DNA from: Candidatus Bathyarchaeota archaeon
GTDB lineage: Archaea; Thermoproteota; Bathyarchaeia; TCS64
Assembly (NCBI GenBank): GCA_963771885.1
Contig: CAVYVF010000023.1
Coordinates: forward strand, 32,001 to 96,000
DNA: 64,000 bases
Direction: 5' to 3'
The notes under the pieces are model-generated. The model was given only the letters and a program-made list of their open reading frames with translations, searched no databases and was not told the DNA's origin. A program made the translations under genes and the position numbers. The stretch's first letter is position 1; every line of letters starts with the position of its first letter. Of the stretch, positions 1,641 to 53,094 are shown piece by piece.

Positions 1641-3197
1641 TTACTCCCACTCTATTGTACTCGGAGGCTTATTTGTTACATCATAGACGACCCTCGTTAC
1701 CTCTGGAATGCCGTTTGTGATCCTTGTGCTTATACGTTCTAACAGGTCCCACGGGGCGCGCGTGAAGTTGGCGGTCATAGCGTCCACGCTCTCGACTATG
1801 CGTATCGCGATCGTCCACCCGTAGGCGCGCTCATCACCTTTGACGCCCGTGCTCTTCGTGTCTGTGAGTACGGCGAAGTACTGCCACGGGACGCCGGCTA
1901 TCTCCGACTTTTCGACTTCCTCAATTACGACGGCGTCAGCCTGCCTGAGAGCGTCGAGCTTCTCCTCGGTGACCTCACCGATTATCCTTACGGCGAGGCC
2001 TGGGCCAGGGAAGGGCTGACGCCAGACGAGTTCCTTGGGTAGTCCCAGCCTCTCGCCCAAGGCGCGGACCTCGTCCTTGTAGAGGTCTTTGAGTGGCTCG
2101 ACGACTCCCTTGAATTCCATATGGAGGGGGAGGCCACCGACGTTGTGGTGAGTCTTTATGGTGTCGGCGTGGCGAGTGATGCCTGACTCTATCCTGTCGG
2201 GGTAGATTGTTCCCTGAACAAGGTAATCGGCGCCGAAGCGGCGGGCTTCATCCTCGAAGACCCTGATGAATTCCTCCCCGATGATCTTCCTTTTGCTCTC
2301 CGGATCGGTGACGCTCTTGAGGCGTTTTAAGAACCGCTCCTTGGCGTCGACAACCTTGACGTTGACGCCGGTGCGTTCCATCGCCTCTTTGACCTGGTGA
2401 GATTCGTTCATTCTCATGAGCCCGTGGTCGACATGGACCGCGATGATCTTGTCACCGAGCGCCTTTCCAACGATGGCAGCTGCCACGCTCGAGTCCACGC
2501 CTCCGCTGAGGGCGATAACGGCTTTACCGTCTCCGACCTGCTTCTTGACGAACTCTATTCCCTCCTCAACGGCATCGACTGGGCGCCAGTTGGGTTTGCA
2601 CTTGCAGATCTCGAAGACGAAATTGCGGAGCATCAGGTCACCGTGAGTGGTATGTTTGACCTCGGGATGCCACTGTAGGCCGTAGACGCCTTTCTCAGGG
2701 TAGGCGAAGGCTGCGACTGGGGCAGAGTCGGTATGGGCGAGGACGTTGAAGCAGCGGGGCAGGCTGAAAACCGTGTCACCGTGGCTCATCCAGACTGGCT
2801 CCTTGACCTCCATGCCTTTTAGTATGCCCTCAGCCCTGTCGATGTAGGCGGTGCGCGAGCCATACTCCTTGACCGTGCCCTTCTTGACGTCTCCCTTGTG
2901 TATCTGAGCTAGGAGCTGGTGGCCGTAGCAGAGCCCAAGGACGGGGACGCCAAGATTTAGAATCTCCTCGTCGAGCCTAAGAGCGTTCTGAGCGTTAACG
3001 CTGCTCGGGCTCCCCGAGAGTATAACACCCCTCAGCCTCATGACCTTGCTCAGCACCTTAACCTCATCCACGGAAGCGTCGCTGGGTAGAATCTCGGAGT
3101 AGACCTTCATCTCACGCACGCGGCGGGCGATGAGGTGGCAGTATTGGCCTCCGAAGTCGAGGATTACGATCCCATCGGGAAGCTGATCCTTGGGCAT
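1641..3197 (-). CDS. guaA: GMP synthase (glutamine-hydrolysing), fused GATase + ATPPase
   Basis: ILDFGGQY, GLCYGHQ, QWHPEV, ALSGGVDS, IKTHHNVGG, PFPGPGLAVR, KPPSTIEWE; likely start ATG at 3197. Confidence 0.97.
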   Translation of the reverse strand: MPKDQLPDGIVILDFGGQYCHLIARRVREMKVYSEILPSDASVDEVKVLSKVMRLRGVILSGSPSSVNAQNALRLDEEILNLGVPVLGLCYGHQLLAQIHKGDVKKGTVKEYGSRTAYIDRAEGILKGMEVKEPVWMSHGDTVFSLPRCFNVLAHTDSAPVAAFAYPEKGVYGLQWHPEVKHTTHGDLMLRNFVFEICKCKPNWRPVDAVEEGIEFVKKQVGDGKAVIALSGGVDSSVAAAIVGKALGDKIIAVHVDHGLMRMNESHQVKEAMERTGVNVKVVDAKERFLKRLKSVTDPESKRKIIGEEFIRVFEDEARRFGADYLVQGTIYPDRIESGITRHADTIKTHHNVGGLPLHMEFKGVVEPLKDLYKDEVRALGERLGLPKELVWRQPFPGPGLAVRIIGEVTEEKLDALRQADAVVIEEVEKSEIAGVPWQYFAVLTDTKSTGVKGDERAYGWTIAIRIVESVDAMTANFTRAPWDLLERISTRITNGIPEVTRVVYDVTNKPPSTIEWE

Positions 3198-44784: not shown

Positions 44785-45680
44785 TGAGCGAAAGGATAGC
44801 AGTCGAAGCGAAGAATTTGATAAGGGTATACAAGACGGGAGACTTGGAGGTACAAGCCCTCAGGGGCCTAAGCGTAACGGTCGGCGTTGGGGAGTTGGTA
44901 GCCCTCATAGGACCATCCGGCTCGGGCAAGAGTACGCTGCTAAACATCATCGGTGGCCTCGACCGCGCCACCGCGGGCTACATCGGTGTAATGGGCAGCG
45001 ACCTCACGCAGCTAAGCGCCTCCCAGCTAGTCGAGTTCAGGAGGAGAACCGTCGGCCACGTCTTCCAGAACATGAACCTAATTCCCACCCTCACGGCGGC
45101 GGAGAACATCGAGCTCCCCATGGCTGCGCTTGGCATGAAGAAGGACGCGCGCCGTAAGCGCGTCGAGGAGCTCATCGGCGTCGTCGGGCTAAAAGAGCGC
45201 ATGGACCACAAGCCCGGCGAGCTCAGTGGGGGTGAGCAGCAGCGAATAGCGTTAGCTGCTGCACTCGCGAACGACCCGCCACTCGTCCTCGCAGATGAGC
45301 CGACAGGCGAACTCGACACAGAGAACGCCATGATAGTCGTCAACTACCTCGCCAAGGTCAATCGAGAGCTCGGGAAGACCATCATAATGGTCACCCACGA
45401 TCCGCGCGTCGCCCGCTCTGCGAGCCGCCTGCTACGCATACAAGATGGCGTACTCGCAACCGACGAGGCCCCAAGCGAGGAGGCGGCGCCGACCCAGACT
45501 AACTACACGGACATGCTGAAGACGCGCCTCACAAGTATCGACTCACAGCTCGCGGAGCTCGACGCAGAGTTCAGGAGGGGCGTCATCACGAGCGACCAGT
45601 TCGTCGAGAGGCAGACAAGACTCAAGAGGACGAGGGATGTCCTAGGCGAGGAGCTCCACCGCCTCGGCGTCGTCCATTAA
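44784..45680 (+). CDS. LolD/MacB-type ABC ATP-binding protein
   Basis: GPSGSGKST, LSGGEQQR, ADEPTGELD, VTHD. Confidence 0.93.
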   Translation: MSERIAVEAKNLIRVYKTGDLEVQALRGLSVTVGVGELVALIGPSGSGKSTLLNIIGGLDRATAGYIGVMGSDLTQLSASQLVEFRRRTVGHVFQNMNLIPTLTAAENIELPMAALGMKKDARRKRVEELIGVVGLKERMDHKPGELSGGEQQRIALAAALANDPPLVLADEPTGELDTENAMIVVNYLAKVNRELGKTIIMVTHDPRVARSASRLLRIQDGVLATDEAPSEEAAPTQTNYTDMLKTRLTSIDSQLAELDAEFRRGVITSDQFVERQTRLKRTRDVLGEELHRLGVVH

Positions 45681-45711
45681 CTTTAATCAATTTTTAATTA
45701 AGAGAAGAGGC

Positions 45712-45834
45712 GGGCCACCAGCTTCCCCGGCTTCGCGTCGCCGAAGACAACACTACCGCCGCGAACGGAGCGTGGTTTAACTTCCGAGTTCGGAATGGGT
45801 TCGGGTGGTTCCCACGCCCTATGGCCGGTAACCC
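45712..45834 (-). rRNA. rrf: 5S rRNA (stand-alone)
   Basis: GGCCATAG...CACCCGAACCCATTCCGAACTCGGAAGTTAA; ends pair as helix I (GGGTTACCGGC/GCTGGTGGCCC); TTTAAA box 30 nt upstream. Confidence 0.95.
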
Positions 45835-45986
45835 AAACCAATGGCTATGGGTGTCAATTTTAAACCTTTTGGTGTCCTAAAAAGTAGGTTACGGGGAAAA
45901 TTACGTACGGTAGTCATTGGGAGGTGCTGATACCAAGACATTATACAAATAATGCGAATCGAACAACGGCATGTTCTGGTGGTTAG

Positions 45987-46309
45987 TCAACCATTGCTTA
46001 GTTCGACGTGAAACTCGGCAACCCAGACAACCGCTTCGGGGTCCCATGCGCCAGTGAGAGTTCGCCACTCCTCGATGAAACCTCTGAGGTTCTTGACTCC
46101 CTCTCGGCGAGCGTCCGTCTCGGTCATGTCGCCGAGCCTCTGTTGGTAGAGGCGGTCGACCCTGATCTTCTCTTCAAGTGTTCGAAGAAGCCAGTGCGTA
46201 TGTTGTAGGAACTCCCCTCCTTCACCATGGGTTTCCTCGTTCGCCGGGTCGTCGTCTTTGCCCTGGACAGGATCAGGGGGGTATATTGCTTCATCCAGAG
46301 TAGAGCCAC
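45987..46309 (-). CDS. ASCH-domain protein with a 1-nt deletion at about 46174
   Basis: ILSRAKTTTRR in one frame; RLGDMTETDARREG...W...VWVAEF in the next. Confidence 0.75.
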
Positions 46310-46394
46310 GACATGGATTAGGTGTCTCTGCGTTTAGTGATTGTGTGGTTCCCCGCCAGATTTATTAGGTGAAACCCTGTATGCGATTTGCACG

Positions 46395-46527
46395 GGGGTC
46401 GTGGTCTAGACAGGTATGACGTTGGGCTCCAGAAATCCATTAAGGACTTAACTGACCCGTGAGGGGATGACGAGTTTTTGGAGCAGAAACCCAAATGCCG
46501 GGGGTTCAAATCCTCCCGACCCCACCA
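46395..46527 (+). tRNA. trnW: tRNA-Trp(CCA) with a 56-nt intron at 37/38 (46433-46488); CCA encoded
   Basis: Acceptor GGGGTCG/CGACCCC; anticodon stem TTGGG/CCCAA with loop CT-CCA-G|A; T-loop GTTCAAATC. Confidence 0.93.
46433..46488 (+). ncRNA. Intron-encoded box C/D-like sRNA
   Basis: CTGA (46452-46455), CCC-GTGA-GGG stem, ATGACGA (46467-46473); segment TTTTTGGAG antisense to the anticodon loop. Confidence 0.65.
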
Positions 46528-46539
46528 TTGCTAATTACG

Positions 46540-47013
46540 TTACTTGCCTTTGGGGAGGCGGTCCGCCACTAGGTTTAGCTGTATACCATGTTCTAGCCAT
46601 GCCTTTGCCCCAGCAAGGCACCAAGTGAAGCCCCCGGTTGAGCCAAGGGCTGAGTTCATGATTGTGTCGCCGTCGCCGTGGAAACCACTCTCAGTGACGT
46701 CGACGAACGTAGCCTCCTTACCATACGGGGTGAACTTCCACTCCACCTTAGTGGGGTCGCCATAGCTTTGCCACTCTATGAGTATACTCTTATTCTCCTC
46801 AATCTCCTTGACGACTACCTCGGCGGAGACGTTGTACATCTCCCACGCCCACGTGACCTTCTGGCCCTCAGTTAGTTTGCCGCTGCCCTTGGTGAACCAG
46901 AACTTCGTCGTGACCTCGGGGTCGATGAAGGCGTTGAAGACTTCGGTGATTGGTCGGCGTATGAGCATCGCCGTGTTAGCGACAGGCTCCATTGTTAGCT
47001 GGAGCGTTTTCAT
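46540..47013 (-). CDS. SRPBCC/AHSA1-family protein
   Basis: MLIRRPITEVFNAFIDP...KFWFTKGSG...STGGFT. Confidence 0.88.
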   Translation of the reverse strand: MKTLQLTMEPVANTAMLIRRPITEVFNAFIDPEVTTKFWFTKGSGKLTEGQKVTWAWEMYNVSAEVVVKEIEENKSILIEWQSYGDPTKVEWKFTPYGKEATFVDVTESGFHGDGDTIMNSALGSTGGFTWCLAGAKAWLEHGIQLNLVADRLPKGK

Positions 47014-48936: not shown

Positions 48937-49287
48937 TCACTTCTTCAGGGTTATCGTGTACCTTGCGCTGAGTGGCTTTAAGGCATCGTCCACTTTTCTT
49001 ATCGTCTCATTGATGTATTCTCTCGTTGGCTCGACCATCCATAGGAAGACGAAGTCGTGTCCCTCCAGCTCCTCGGCGGGGGCGAGGATGTGTCCGCAGC
49101 GCTCGTAGTCGATATTACCACGTCCCTTGAAGTAGTTGTAGACCCAGTCGACGGCGCGTGTGTAGGGGTCGGAGTGTAGGAGGAGGGGGTTCATGAGGCA
49201 GATGTGAGGGCTCTCAACAGCTATTTTCTCAAGTGCCTCGATGGATTCGAGGTAGGGTGGCGCGTAGATTCTGATCAATGCCTTCAT
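48937..49287 (-). CDS. Hypothetical protein
   Basis: Globular-looking ORF filling the intergenic gap. Confidence 0.6.
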   Translation of the reverse strand: MKALIRIYAPPYLESIEALEKIAVESPHICLMNPLLLHSDPYTRAVDWVYNYFKGRGNIDYERCGHILAPAEELEGHDFVFLWMVEPTREYINETIRKVDDALKPLSARYTITLKK

Positions 49288-49338
49288 AATTGACTCTATC
49301 ACTCGTTTGGAAGAGTGGGCTATAATCCTTGACTAGGT

Positions 49339-50669: not shown

Positions 50670-51317
50670 CTAGACTTCGTACTTCGTCGGGTCGGGTATC
50701 CCCGCCTCTGCGAATGCCCTCTTCCTGTTGTTGCAGGACTCGCACTCTCCACAATGGGTAGGCCCCTGAAGGTAGCAGGACCACGTCTTCTCAAGAGGGA
50801 CTCCGAGTCTCACAGCTTCCCGGAGGACTCCGGATTTACGTAAATGGCTGAGGGGGGAAGTTATCGTGATGTCATTCGCTGTGCCGAGGCGCGCAGCCTT
50901 CTCGAACGCCTCGTAGAACTCTCTTCGGCAATCAGGGTAGAACTCCTCGTCCCCCGCATGGGCACCATATATGACGAGGTCGGCACCGATCCCGTCGGCG
51001 AACGCGACAGCTACGGATAGGAAAATTCCATTGCGGAAGGGCACGATGATCGGGTCGGTGAACGTGCCCGTGACCTCCATCTCCGCATCGACAAGACTCG
51101 TGACACCTTCATAGATGCCACTCAAGTTCCTGAGGTCGATGATCTTGTGGGGTATCTTCAGTATCCTAGTGATCTCGGTAGCATGCTCTATCTCGACCTG
51201 CGCCTTCTGGCTGTAGTTGAACGTGAGGGCGTGGACCTCGTAGTTCTTCTCCCTCGCCCAGTAGGCGGCGGTTACTGAGTCTGGTCCCCCGCTGAGTATG
51301 ATGACACATTTCCTCAT
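50670..51317 (-). CDS. queC: 7-cyano-7-deazaguanine (preQ0) synthase
   Basis: LSGGPDS, VPFRNGIFLS, YPDCR, TWSCY...HCGECESC..RK. Confidence 0.95.
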   Translation of the reverse strand: MRKCVIILSGGPDSVTAAYWAREKNYEVHALTFNYSQKAQVEIEHATEITRILKIPHKIIDLRNLSGIYEGVTSLVDAEMEVTGTFTDPIIVPFRNGIFLSVAVAFADGIGADLVIYGAHAGDEEFYPDCRREFYEAFEKAARLGTANDITITSPLSHLRKSGVLREAVRLGVPLEKTWSCYLQGPTHCGECESCNNRKRAFAEAGIPDPTKYEV

Positions 51318-51319
51318 TT

Positions 51320-51787
51320 CTACCACTTCATCCTCCGCTCAAGCACCGTAAATATTCCCGCTCCCAGGACGTTGATTATGAGCTCGCTTGCCAGTAACCC
51401 AGGAAGAGTCAACCCGACAGGTAGACTGAACAGCTGCAACAGCATCCACGAAACGCATACCGGGATGATGATGGCAATGATCAGCCCGCAGGTCCAGTAG
51501 CTTCCCCCGAAGCGCTTCGCTACCTCGTAGCCGATGAGCCCCGCGGCGAGGCTCGCAACAGGCATGAAGAGGAGCTCGTAGATACCCGCGAAGGGGCTCA
51601 TGAGGTTACCAACGACGACGCCGATGGCGTAGCCTACTGCTAGCACCCTCATCCGGGCTATCCCGGGCCTGACGACGCCGGCGAGCCTGAACTGAAGTAC
51701 ACCGAAGCTTATCGGCGAGAAGACGATGACGAGCGACGCGTAGAGCGCCGCATAAACAGCTACTAGGGATAGTTCTCTCGTGTTCAA
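51320..51787 (-). CDS. queT: QueT-family 7-deazaguanine precursor transporter
   Basis: AVYAALYA.L...PISFGVLQFR; TTG start at 51787 with GGAGG SD; directly upstream of queC. Confidence 0.8.
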   Translation of the reverse strand: MNTRELSLVAVYAALYASLVIVFSPISFGVLQFRLAGVVRPGIARMRVLAVGYAIGVVVGNLMSPFAGIYELLFMPVASLAAGLIGYEVAKRFGGSYWTCGLIIAIIIPVCVSWMLLQLFSLPVGLTLPGLLASELIINVLGAGIFTVLERRMKW

Positions 51788-51796
51788 CGCTTTTTT

Positions 51797-51854
51797 GCCT
51801 CCCTCCACCGGGATTTCTAAGGCGGAGTCGGGTGGGAGGCCCCACTCACCCGCC
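51797..51854 (-). promoter_or_regulatory. Candidate riboswitch (SD-sequestering pseudoknot) in the queT-queC leader
   Basis: Three mutually compatible helices: CGGGUG/CACCCG, CUCCGCC/GGUGGAG and GCCUCC/GGAGGC (covering the SD); TTATAT box at 51884-51879. Confidence 0.6.
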
Positions 51855-51972
51855 GACAGGAGCCAACATGCACCTGAGATATAACCTTTCCCAGAGGAGG
51901 CACCCAAAGCCCGAATGGGACAGTATTTAACTCACCCGATGTTAGAGAAGGGAGAAAGTATCGGGATCCGCC

Positions 51973-53094
51973 ATGAAGTTCAGCAAGCTCGCCATCAGTA
52001 AGGAGCTTAAGAAGGGGCTCAAGGAGATCGGCTTTGACGACATGTTCCCCATACAGGAGAAGGCGATCCCGCCCATGCTCGAGGGAAAAGATGTAATAGG
52101 TCAAGCGAAGACGGGCACCGGCAAGACCGCCGCCTTCGGCGTCCCCATGATACAACTCCTCGAACCCGAGAAGCATCTCGTCCAAGGACTCGTTCTCGCT
52201 CCCACCCGTGAACTTGCGCAGCAGATAACCGAGGACATAAACGACTTCGCCAAGTATACGCAGGTCCGCGCTACAGCTGTCTACGGCGGAGTCTCAATCG
52301 ACAAGCAGTTTATTGAGCTCAAGAGGGGTCCCGCCATCGTCGTCGGCACCCCGGGGAGGATCATCGACCACCTCAACCGCGGCACCCTCAGCCTCCACAA
52401 CATCAAGATGCTCGTACTCGACGAGGCAGACAACATGCTCGACATGGGCTTCGTCGAAGACATCGAGTACATCCTCAAACGCACACCGAAAACCAAGCAG
52501 GTAAGCCTCTGGAGCGCCACAATCGACGACCGCACCATGAACATAAGCAGCCGATACATGCACGACGCTGAATTCGTCAACGTAAGCCGCGACGAGATAG
52601 GCGTCTCCAACATCAAGCAGCACTACATACTCTGCAACGAGCATGAGAAGGAGGAGACTCTTAAGCGCATCATCGACTTCTACAAGATTGAACGCTGCAT
52701 CATCTTCTGTAGGATGAAGATAGGCGTCGACGATTTATACGCTATGCTTAGTAGATCCGGATACAGCGCCGAGGCGATACACGGTAACTTCACCCAGGCG
52801 CGGCGCCAGCAGGTGCTCGACGGCTTCAAGCAGGGGAAGTTCAGTATAATGATAGCCACCGAGCTCGCGGCGAGGGGACTCGACATCGAGGACGTGCCGT
52901 GGATAATCAACTACGACATCCCGATGGATCCGAATATGTACTTCCACCGCGTAGGCAGGACGGCGCGCGCCGGGAAAGCGGGGAACGCGATAACGCTCGT
53001 CACGCCCGAGGAGGAGATCGAGCTTGAGAGGATCAAAGCGATGACCAAGATCCCCATATACAAGCTGACGCTGCCCCCCAGTTTCCTCTTCTAA
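51973..53094 (+). CDS. DEAD-box RNA helicase
   Basis: AKTGTGKT, PTRELA, TPGR, DEAD, SAT, ARGLD, HRVGRTAR. Confidence 0.96.
   Translation: MKFSKLAISKELKKGLKEIGFDDMFPIQEKAIPPMLEGKDVIGQAKTGTGKTAAFGVPMIQLLEPEKHLVQGLVLAPTRELAQQITEDINDFAKYTQVRATAVYGGVSIDKQFIELKRGPAIVVGTPGRIIDHLNRGTLSLHNIKMLVLDEADNMLDMGFVEDIEYILKRTPKTKQVSLWSATIDDRTMNISSRYMHDAEFVNVSRDEIGVSNIKQHYILCNEHEKEETLKRIIDFYKIERCIIFCRMKIGVDDLYAMLSRSGYSAEAIHGNFTQARRQQVLDGFKQGKFSIMIATELAARGLDIEDVPWIINYDIPMDPNMYFHRVGRTARAGKAGNAITLVTPEEEIELERIKAMTKIPIYKLTLPPSFLF

Follow-up and report, generated by a model that had tools for sequence, protein, structure and literature searches.

A conserved pseudoknot-forming leader upstream of queT in Bathyarchaeia, a candidate riboswitch for 7-deazaguanines

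Riboswitches of the preQ1 family control the bacterial genes queT and queCDEF, and some of them bury the Shine-Dalgarno (SD) sequence; a 2024 review of this family names three classes and, in the portion of its text that was available, does not use the word archaea (PMC11625349). In the present study, the leader of a queT-queC gene pair was analysed in a window of 64,000 nt from Candidatus Bathyarchaeota archaeon (assembly GCA_963771885.1, contig CAVYVF010000023.1, positions 32,001-96,000 of the forward strand); coordinates below refer to this window. Validated archaeal riboswitch classes are to our knowledge very few, and those known to us, for thiamine pyrophosphate (TPP) and for fluoride, are shared with bacteria. 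The leader analysed here is almost certainly a conserved, structured and cis-acting element, and the comparative evidence makes it probable that it functions as a riboswitch, with preQ0 or a close 7-deazaguanine as a rather likely OFF ligand. Taken as a whole, the observations are best explained by a riboswitch of an undescribed class that turns translation OFF in response to a 7-deazaguanine, preQ0 being the most likely one, and a probability of about 0.6 is assigned to this reading.

On the minus strand the locus consists of the promoter-like element GAAAGG-TTATAT (51890-51879), a spacer of 24 nt, the leader GGCGGGUGAGUGGGGCCUCCCACCCGACUCCGCCUUAGAAAUCCCGGUGGAGGGAGGC (51854-51797), six adenines, GCG and the TTG start codon of queT (51787-51785), which is located 10 nt past the last G of the GGAGG SD sequence. 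The leader has a length of ~58 nt, begins with GGCGGGUGAG and ends with GGGAGGC. The queT gene, which gives the single QueT match in this genome, putatively encodes the S component of an energy-coupling factor (ECF)-type transporter for 7-deazaguanine uptake, and its 3′-end is overlapped by queC over 7 nt. The original prediction, an earlier reading of the bare sequence, had described sequence, coordinates and gene order as they were found here, with queT assigned to PF06177 and the following queC to PF06508. Its placement of a B recognition element (BRE)/TATA motif, from which a transcript start near 51854 had been derived, agrees with the spacing to the first base of the element as well, since the hexamer starts at position −30 relative to the first base of the closing helix P1.

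This spacing recurs in the relatives. Upstream of P1 in 176 leaders the A+T content was 0.77-0.86 at positions −35 to −28 and ~0.55 elsewhere, and a TATA-like hexamer was present in 100 of the 176, starting at −35 to −29 in 86 of those 100. The usual distance from TATA box to transcription start in Archaea is ~26-27 nt, counted from the centre of the box, and transcripts would therefore begin at P1 or just before it. For the window this places the predicted transcript start at 51854 or a few bases before it, in which case the element would form the entire 5′-untranslated region (5′-UTR). A coding function of the leader, as part of a longer open reading frame (ORF) running from 51907 through it, was considered and rejected: an in-frame stop codon interrupts this frame in 108 of 157 related leaders and the lengths of the 157 vary from 45 to 85 nt in single-base steps, so that the leader does not encode an N-terminal extension of QueT.

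Conservation of the leader reaches far past that of the protein encoded downstream of it. A protein search with QueT in 41 related genomes gave matches in 32 and returned 30 loci, and in 20 of these a near-identical string of 58 nt was located directly before the start codon, even though most of the QueT proteins at these 20 loci were only 30-40% identical to that of the window. The original prediction had mentioned leader strings of this kind for que genes of other archaea, and this was confirmed in the related genomes. A covariance model built from the 20 leaders (R1) gave a single genuine match in the genome of the window (89 bits); the two matches that came next (E 0.24 and 0.54) were taken as noise. 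In a class sample of 151 evenly sampled Bathyarchaeia genomes, R1 matched 90 genomes, including 70 of the 94 high-quality genomes, and 52 of the 79 genera; four of the 90 genomes carried two copies, with the second copy in G119 scoring 38.5 bits, and all others carried one. Two weak matches among the 90 (G075 and G030, ~21-22 bits) were treated as noise. Outside the class but within the phylum Thermoproteota, a second model built from 100 matches (R2) was positive in 16 of 131 sampled genomes, mostly from the three families f38 (9 of 15), f50 (3 of 3) and f54 (2 of 2), with f58 (one genome) and f39 (one weak match) in addition, while no element was detected by R2 in f32 (0 of 19), f36 (0 of 13) and f41 (0 of 13). 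Moreover, when one genome of every prokaryotic species was scanned with an exact pattern, at least 119 stretches were obtained; among the 80 matches listed, the record titles were almost all Bathyarchaeia or Bathyarchaeota, with a few Methanomethylicus or Methanomethylicota, Nitrososphaeria or Nitrososphaerota, or simply 'archaeon'. The mostly single copy per genome and the wide spread over genera make up a distribution that is typical of a riboswitch. As a separate observation, leader-plus-QueT loci were present in bins labelled Promethearchaeota, Promethearchaeati and Methylomirabilota (L128, L190 and L199), reflecting either mis-binning or a wider range of the motif.

At the loci examined, the element is tied to 7-deazaguanine uptake and synthesis only. 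Of the first 100 leader matches, 93 had a downstream ORF of ≥60 aa whose start lay no more than a few bases from the SD sequence, and this ORF encoded QueT in 87 of the 93 (86 above the Pfam cut-off); two of the six other ORFs (L041 and L074) are probably wrong start calls. A further 23 ORFs, mostly from outside the class, comprised 20 encoding QueT, two encoding Radical_SAM plus Fer4_12 proteins of QueE-like size (L137 and L189) and one that belongs to a noise match (L268, 22.7 bits, no QueT). In 32 of 100 related loci, as in the window, queT is followed by queC in the same orientation; beyond queT and queC the neighbouring genes differ from locus to locus. The expected link to 7-deazaguanine genes was thereby found mostly with queT, secondly with queC and twice with QueE-like genes.

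At the other four of the six loci without a QueT match a protein of 229-234 aa occupies the place of QueT (L055:1565-2260, L062:813-1499 on the minus strand, L071:2068-2769 and L072:2068-2769). These proteins match no Pfam family and appear by eye to be six-helix membrane proteins, and their leaders are of the GGCGCG type. Judged from these sequences, the unnamed protein is a candidate for a new family of 7-deazaguanine transporters under the same switch.

For the analysis of the structure, 196 matches were merged into 180 unique leaders, 177 of which parse as P1, interior, P1′, linker, A.AAA[ACU]CCC and tail; the features of the window's leader are listed in Table 1. P1 covaries clearly: among the 177 leaders, pair 1 was G-C in 138, A-U in 22, G-U in six, U-A in three, C-G in three and non-standard in five, and pair 5 was G-C in 155, C-G in 21 and C-C in one, the last being a parsing slip. 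The segment at nt 6-9 was GUGA in 152, GUGG in 16 and GUAG in nine leaders, and the A/C mismatch within the basal part of P2 is conserved, shifting by one position in the GUAG variants. Above it, P2 includes the pairs G10-C23 and U11-A22, the latter replaced by C-G in three sequences, and two or three further G-C pairs in most leaders, the upper three pairs of P2 competing with the pseudoknot. Variant stems of other sequence occur as well, either as uninterrupted hairpins in short variants (GGGGG/CCCCC and GGAGG/CCUCC) or as GGUGG/CCACC. The last six bases of the interior were CCCGUU in 133 of the 177 leaders, and the window's genus has CCGACU or CCGAUU. Together P1 and P2 form a composite stem of 12-13 pairs within an element of ~58 nt.

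Table 1. Features of the queT-queC locus and its leader (nt numbering starts at 51854)
Feature	Position	Strand	Description	Basis
BRE/TATA-like element	51879..51890	-	GAAAGG TTATAT; putative promoter	sequence
P1, 5′ strand	51850..51854	-	GGCGG, nt 1-5	covariation with 51821-51825
Basal P2	51846..51849	-	GUGA, nt 6-9; G6-U, U7-G, G8-C, A9/C24 mismatch	pair counts 8-43, 9-40, 10-39
P2, 5′ strand	51841..51845	-	GUGGG, nt 10-14; pairs with CCCAC 51832-51836	pair counts, variant stems
Pseudoknot, 5′ strand (anti-SD)	51834..51840	-	GCCUCCC, nt 15-21; hairpin loop and top of P2 3′ strand	pairs with 51797-51803
P2, 3′ strand, and junction	51826..51833	-	ACCCGACU, nt 22-29	conservation
P1, 3′ strand	51821..51825	-	CCGCC, nt 30-34	covariation with 51850-51854
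Linker	51808..51820	-	UU-AGAAAUCCCGG, nt 35-47; near-invariant AnAAAYCCCGG; putative strand of the ligand pocket or of tertiary contacts	conservation; proposed role
Pseudoknot, 3′ strand	51797..51803	-	GGGAGGC, nt 52-58; contains SD GGAGG	covariation
queT coding sequence	51320..51787	-	155 aa, TTG start 51787-51785	PF06177, E 1.1e-15, residues 9-151
queC coding sequence	50670..51326	-	218 aa, second gene of the operon	PF06508, E 8.6e-62

The loop of this stem pairs with the 3′ tail of the leader in nearly all relatives. At least five contiguous loop-tail pairs were formed in 173 of the 177 leaders and at least six in 163, with 76 types of duplex, and six of the seven pseudoknot pairs were changed on both sides in alignment A5, which was fitted to the pseudoknot and comprises 93 leaders selected for <93% likeness. 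Covariation extends to the flanks of the helix, where nt 15-58 occurs as G-C, A-U, U-A and G-U and nt 21-52 changes from C-G to U-A. Five leaders keep the pseudoknot with strands that do not resemble an SD sequence (CCGAC/GUCGG, UUCCGA/UCGGAA and CCACC/GGUGG), so the pairing is not merely that of any SD sequence meeting a CCUCC string. Additionally, the mean score of the pairing between each loop and its own tail was 17.83, compared with 16.29 ± 0.20 when the tails were swapped between leaders (maximum 16.93 in 300 permutations). The pseudoknot is selected for itself.

On A5 the model of P1, P2 and pseudoknot left 96.3% of the cells paired, compared with 88.3 ± 0.4 in shuffles, and reached a covariation score of 0.265, compared with 0.123 ± 0.006 in shuffles (0 of 500 shuffles reaching either value) and at most 0.055 with slid partners; the shuffle controls overstate the significance of these figures, because the sequences are related, and A5 leans to the pseudoknot. 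P1 was not part of the model used for A5 and nevertheless ranked at the top of an unguided mutual-information analysis, in which the P1 column pairs 7-44 and 3-54 and five pseudoknot pairs came first. A single-sequence fold had a minimum free energy of −28.9 kcal/mol, no better than shuffles (z = −0.19) in a fold model that does not include pseudoknots, and RNAalifold on 20 close leaders gave no covariation because these sequences were too alike. The evidence for the structure is therefore comparative and not thermodynamic.

These results revise the fold that had been proposed in the original prediction. The pseudoknot GCCUCC(C)/(G)GGAGGC burying the SD sequence is present and covaries in relatives, but the check for covariation in orthologous leaders supported only this one of the three helices. 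The helix CGGGUG/CACCCG showed no compensatory change, and 16 of 90 sequences had lost its pair at G5, precisely those in which C30 provides the compensation within P1; the hairpin CUCCGCC/GGUGGAG was paired to only 61.8%, with two of its pairs broken in 57 and 59 sequences. The pairing GGCGG/CCGCC, which had been mentioned as an alternative, does exist but is the true closing helix P1. Instead of a topology like that of preQ1-II with an inserted hairpin, the fold is one long stem-loop (P1 and P2) followed by an A-rich linker with CCCGG, and this linker is spanned by the pairing of loop and 3′ tail; the topology is best described, on comparative grounds, as a plain H-type pseudoknot with a long stem and without an inserted hairpin.

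The unpaired bases are the most conserved part of the leader (~20 of them invariant). In the linker, A.AAA[ACU]CCC was found in 177 of the 180 unique leaders and was followed by GG in 172 of the 177. Mutual-information ranking gave no partner strand for CCCGG. Three candidate partners (C24-C25-G26, the GGG of P2 and the GGG of the SD sequence as in the alifold prediction) were rejected: they were by eye not kept across variants and were not among the top mutual-information pairs. Masking of the SD sequence alone needs no near-invariant unpaired bases, which points to a ligand pocket or to a protein site.

Two further associations were observed in A5. The linker base before CCC (nt 42, 51813; column 80) tracks the anti-SD loop (nt 16, 51839; column 27): A42 occurs mainly where the anti-SD strand departs from GCCUCC (UCUCC, CUCC or GCUUCC). 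Of the 30 leaders with A42, 19 have a UCU loop, and of the 147 with C or U at nt 42, 132 have CCU, a pattern seen in both Bathyarchaeia and Methanomethylicus-type leaders. This association may represent a tertiary contact or only shared ancestry. Moreover, C23 and G49 (columns 37 and 89; 51832 and 51806) were C-G in 60 and U-A in five leaders, a possible extra contact in which the five may be a single clade.

No family of Rfam 15 matched at the leader at E values up to 10 (51300-52300), in agreement with the earlier remark that it bears no likeness to preQ1-I, -II or -III, and in eight divergent homologues searched at E up to 1 nothing was found at the leaders and there was one noise match elsewhere in a locus. 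Genome-wide, the best matches of RF00522 (gathering score 39 bits) reached 21 and 18.8 bits on other contigs and not at the leader, and RF01054 (47 bits) and RF02680 (63 bits) gave none at the leader and at most sub-threshold noise elsewhere. Searches of the open-access literature and preprints, which would miss a paper in a subscription journal, gave no description of the motif.

In its gene context the leader resembles preQ1-II. According to the review, preQ1-II (RF01054, the COG4708/queT motif of Bacillota) is located upstream of queT and controls translation only, via an SD sequence within a pseudoknot helix; it folds as an HLout pseudoknot, in which an inserted hairpin is among the four paired regions P1-P4, and is confined to Bacillota (PMC11625349). 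The presumed ligand of the leader belongs to the same chemical family. In contrast to preQ1-II, the leader consists of a stem-loop and a loop-to-tail helix, the candidate inserted hairpin failed on pair counts, no other helix was found by mutual information, and its hosts are Bathyarchaeia, Methanomethylicus and other Thermoproteota. The topology is shared with preQ1-I (RF00522, types 1-3), which the review presents as an H-type pseudoknot of hairpin loop and 3′ tail with an A-rich linker, binding preQ0 and preQ1, controlling que biosynthesis and transporter genes and, in type 3, fully occluding the SD sequence (PMC11625349). The likeness is one of topology only, without likeness in sequence, and the CCCGG-bearing linker of the leader has no counterpart in preQ1-I. 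The stem of preQ1-I has 5 bp and its Rfam model 45 positions, whereas the leader has ~58 nt, a 12-13-bp composite stem and a 7-bp pseudoknot. As with the leader, queT-type genes are controlled by SD/anti-SD pairing in preQ1-III (RF02680), a nested H-type pseudoknot, but this class is described as ~100 nt long and HLout, with an expression platform far from the pocket (PMC11625349). In the leader, by contrast, the SD strand is part of the core fold. Small SD-burying H-type pseudoknots such as SAM-II, in which the ligand locks the loop-to-tail helix and the linker lies in a helix groove, have a general design like that proposed for the leader and differ in ligands, genes and hosts.

In the proposed model, the 5′ leader of the queT-queC mRNA (51854-51788, minus strand) would act in cis as a riboswitch in the following way. 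Nucleotides 1-34 would fold as a long stem of P1, the G-U, U-G and G-C pairs, the A/C mismatch and P2, and GCCUCCC of this stem would pair with GGGAGGC, including the SD sequence, to give the H-type pseudoknot. The linker AnAAAYCCCGG, running along the stem, and the conserved junction bases would form a pocket that accommodates a 7-deazaguanine, with preQ0 as the most likely ligand. At high ligand levels the pseudoknot would be locked and the ribosome-binding site buried, so that translation of QueT, and with it the coupled translation of QueC, would fall; at low levels the top of P2 (GUGGG/CCCAC) would retain the anti-SD strand, or the tail would be undocked, leaving the site free. The switch may thus operate by a choice of register of the anti-SD strand between its own stem top and the SD sequence. 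The top of P2 (roughly −10.8 kcal/mol) and the 7-bp pseudoknot duplex (roughly −13.7 kcal/mol without loop costs) draw on the same cytosines, and with two competing structures this close in energy a bound ligand could tip the balance. Because some leaders are without the competing stem, the mechanism valid in general may simply be that the tail docks in a ligand-dependent manner. End-product feedback on an importer by burying the SD sequence would parallel the bacterial preQ1 riboswitches at queT (PMC11625349).

Several observations count against this reading, in addition to the relatedness of the sequences mentioned above. The need for an SD sequence by itself constrains the core of the pseudoknot, and ~20 of the both-sides changes, located at two pairs, result from a shift of the two strands together by one base in register. 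The top of P2, which is proposed for the ON state, can be formed in most sequences but barely covaries, and it is absent in some leaders (e.g. L109, L121 and L122). In L121, L262, L263, L264 and L265, which have the non-SD pseudoknot, 39-52 residues of the called ORF precede the QueT domain; start codon and expression platform of these five are uncertain and may differ. Finally, contigs from RNA libraries are sparse at the locus and unable to show the start, strand or level of transcription: those of four runs overlap parts of queC and queT, one of them spanning 51670-51815, and one contig, from a relative, is identical over exactly 51796-51854 and diverges on either side.

The choice of preQ0 as ligand follows from the pathway genes. 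The window's genome (92% complete) contains one QueT, one QueC and an archaeal-type TGT, no match to PTPS/QueD or QueF, and only weak radical-SAM matches to one QueE model (at most 29.6 bits). In the class sample a QueD match was found in only 13 of the 151 genomes (138 without) and in four of the 90 motif bearers (86 without), and a QueC match in 40 of the 151, 32 of them motif bearers, leaving 58 of the 90 motif bearers without one. With these genes missing, most motif bearers are unable to make preQ0 and must import it, or 7-carboxy-7-deazaguanine (CDG) where QueC is present, and the gene content suggests that dependence on external preQ0 or CDG is widespread in Bathyarchaeia. The base inserted by the archaeal tRNA-guanine transglycosylase (ArcTGT) is preQ0. 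Given the need to import preQ0 or a precursor, feedback by preQ0 would be the logical control. In the window's genome, the start of a 550-aa ORF (window ~2319-2525, minus strand; genome C23:34319-34525) weakly matches the PP-loop of QueC (30.8 bits, positions 1-66); an asparagine-synthase-type PP-loop enzyme is more likely here than a second QueC.

The same riboswitch architecture could instead sense CDG, preQ1 or bacterial queuine, archaeosine base, or guanine or another purine, and this is the alternative that survives best, although it is judged unlikely. The evidence from structure and gene association applies to it equally. QueC without QueD or a clear QueE in the window's genome hints that CDG, as the substrate of QueC, may also be imported, and the review presents the QueT of bacteria as a transporter of preQ1 (PMC11625349). 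The lack of a QueF match in the window's genome, however, leaves no route to preQ1, which would not be an intermediate there, and the 58 motif bearers without a QueC match need preQ0 itself. A substrate acting as ligand would moreover stop its own uptake before the pool of product fills, which is less logical than feedback by the end product.

Slightly less probable still is that the leader is not a metabolite sensor but the binding site of a protein, either a translational repressor or a tRNA-modification enzyme moonlighting as autoregulator. The near-invariant single-stranded AnAAAYCCCGG and the GUGA segment could equally be a protein recognition site, and the scarcity of validated riboswitch classes in Archaea, as far as known to us, speaks in the same direction. 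Against this, no conserved candidate gene for such a protein is located beside the leader, as the neighbours past queT and queC vary, and the motif occurs in at least two classes, in one copy per genome and always in cis to que genes. In its design, a compact pseudoknot with an A-rich linker, the fold also resembles the small riboswitches that are known. That the element is constitutive or responds to a physical signal, for instance as an RNA thermometer, a 5′ structure stabilising the mRNA or a fixed attenuator of translation, is very improbable, because although SD-masking structures can serve as thermometers and the single-sequence fold energy is unremarkable, a thermometer or stabiliser has no need for ~20 invariant unpaired bases, and the element is linked exclusively to one pathway across hosts from hot springs, soils and sediments with only one copy per genome.

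If the reading as a preQ0 riboswitch is extended to its evolutionary setting, the leader would represent the first class of riboswitches that is native to Archaea and hardly found outside them (Bathyarchaeia, Methanomethylicia and kin). At the same time it would be a fourth way of sensing 7-deazaguanines, without structural relation to the other three and tuned to preQ0 and not to preQ1, and would gate the sole uptake of an archaeosine precursor where de novo synthesis has mostly been lost; the odds on this combined proposition are about even. It would imply that archaea evolved metabolite-sensing RNAs of their own, with a class abundant in an uncultured, globally common lineage, and would set a new fold for 7-deazaguanine recognition beside preQ1-I, -II and -III. 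The presence of the leader would serve as a genomic marker of preQ0 salvage and auxotrophy in Bathyarchaeia and would mark cross-feeding of preQ0 or CDG in the community. Furthermore, archaeal genetics would gain a small (<60 nt) ligand-controlled translational switch.

Other features were noted in the window. A DEAD-box helicase gene is located divergently to the leader, starting at 51973. Between the genes for an M42 peptidase and an ABC ATPase there is an ORF of 121 aa (48937-49302, minus strand) that matches no Pfam family at E up to 0.01. At 46395-46524 (plus strand) a tRNA is predicted by Rfam (50.3 bits over model positions 1-71); its span of 130 nt would require an intron of ~59 nt, and ARAGORN reported no tRNA in 45500-47000. 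A 5S rRNA gene is located at 45713-45832 on the minus strand (70.7 bits).

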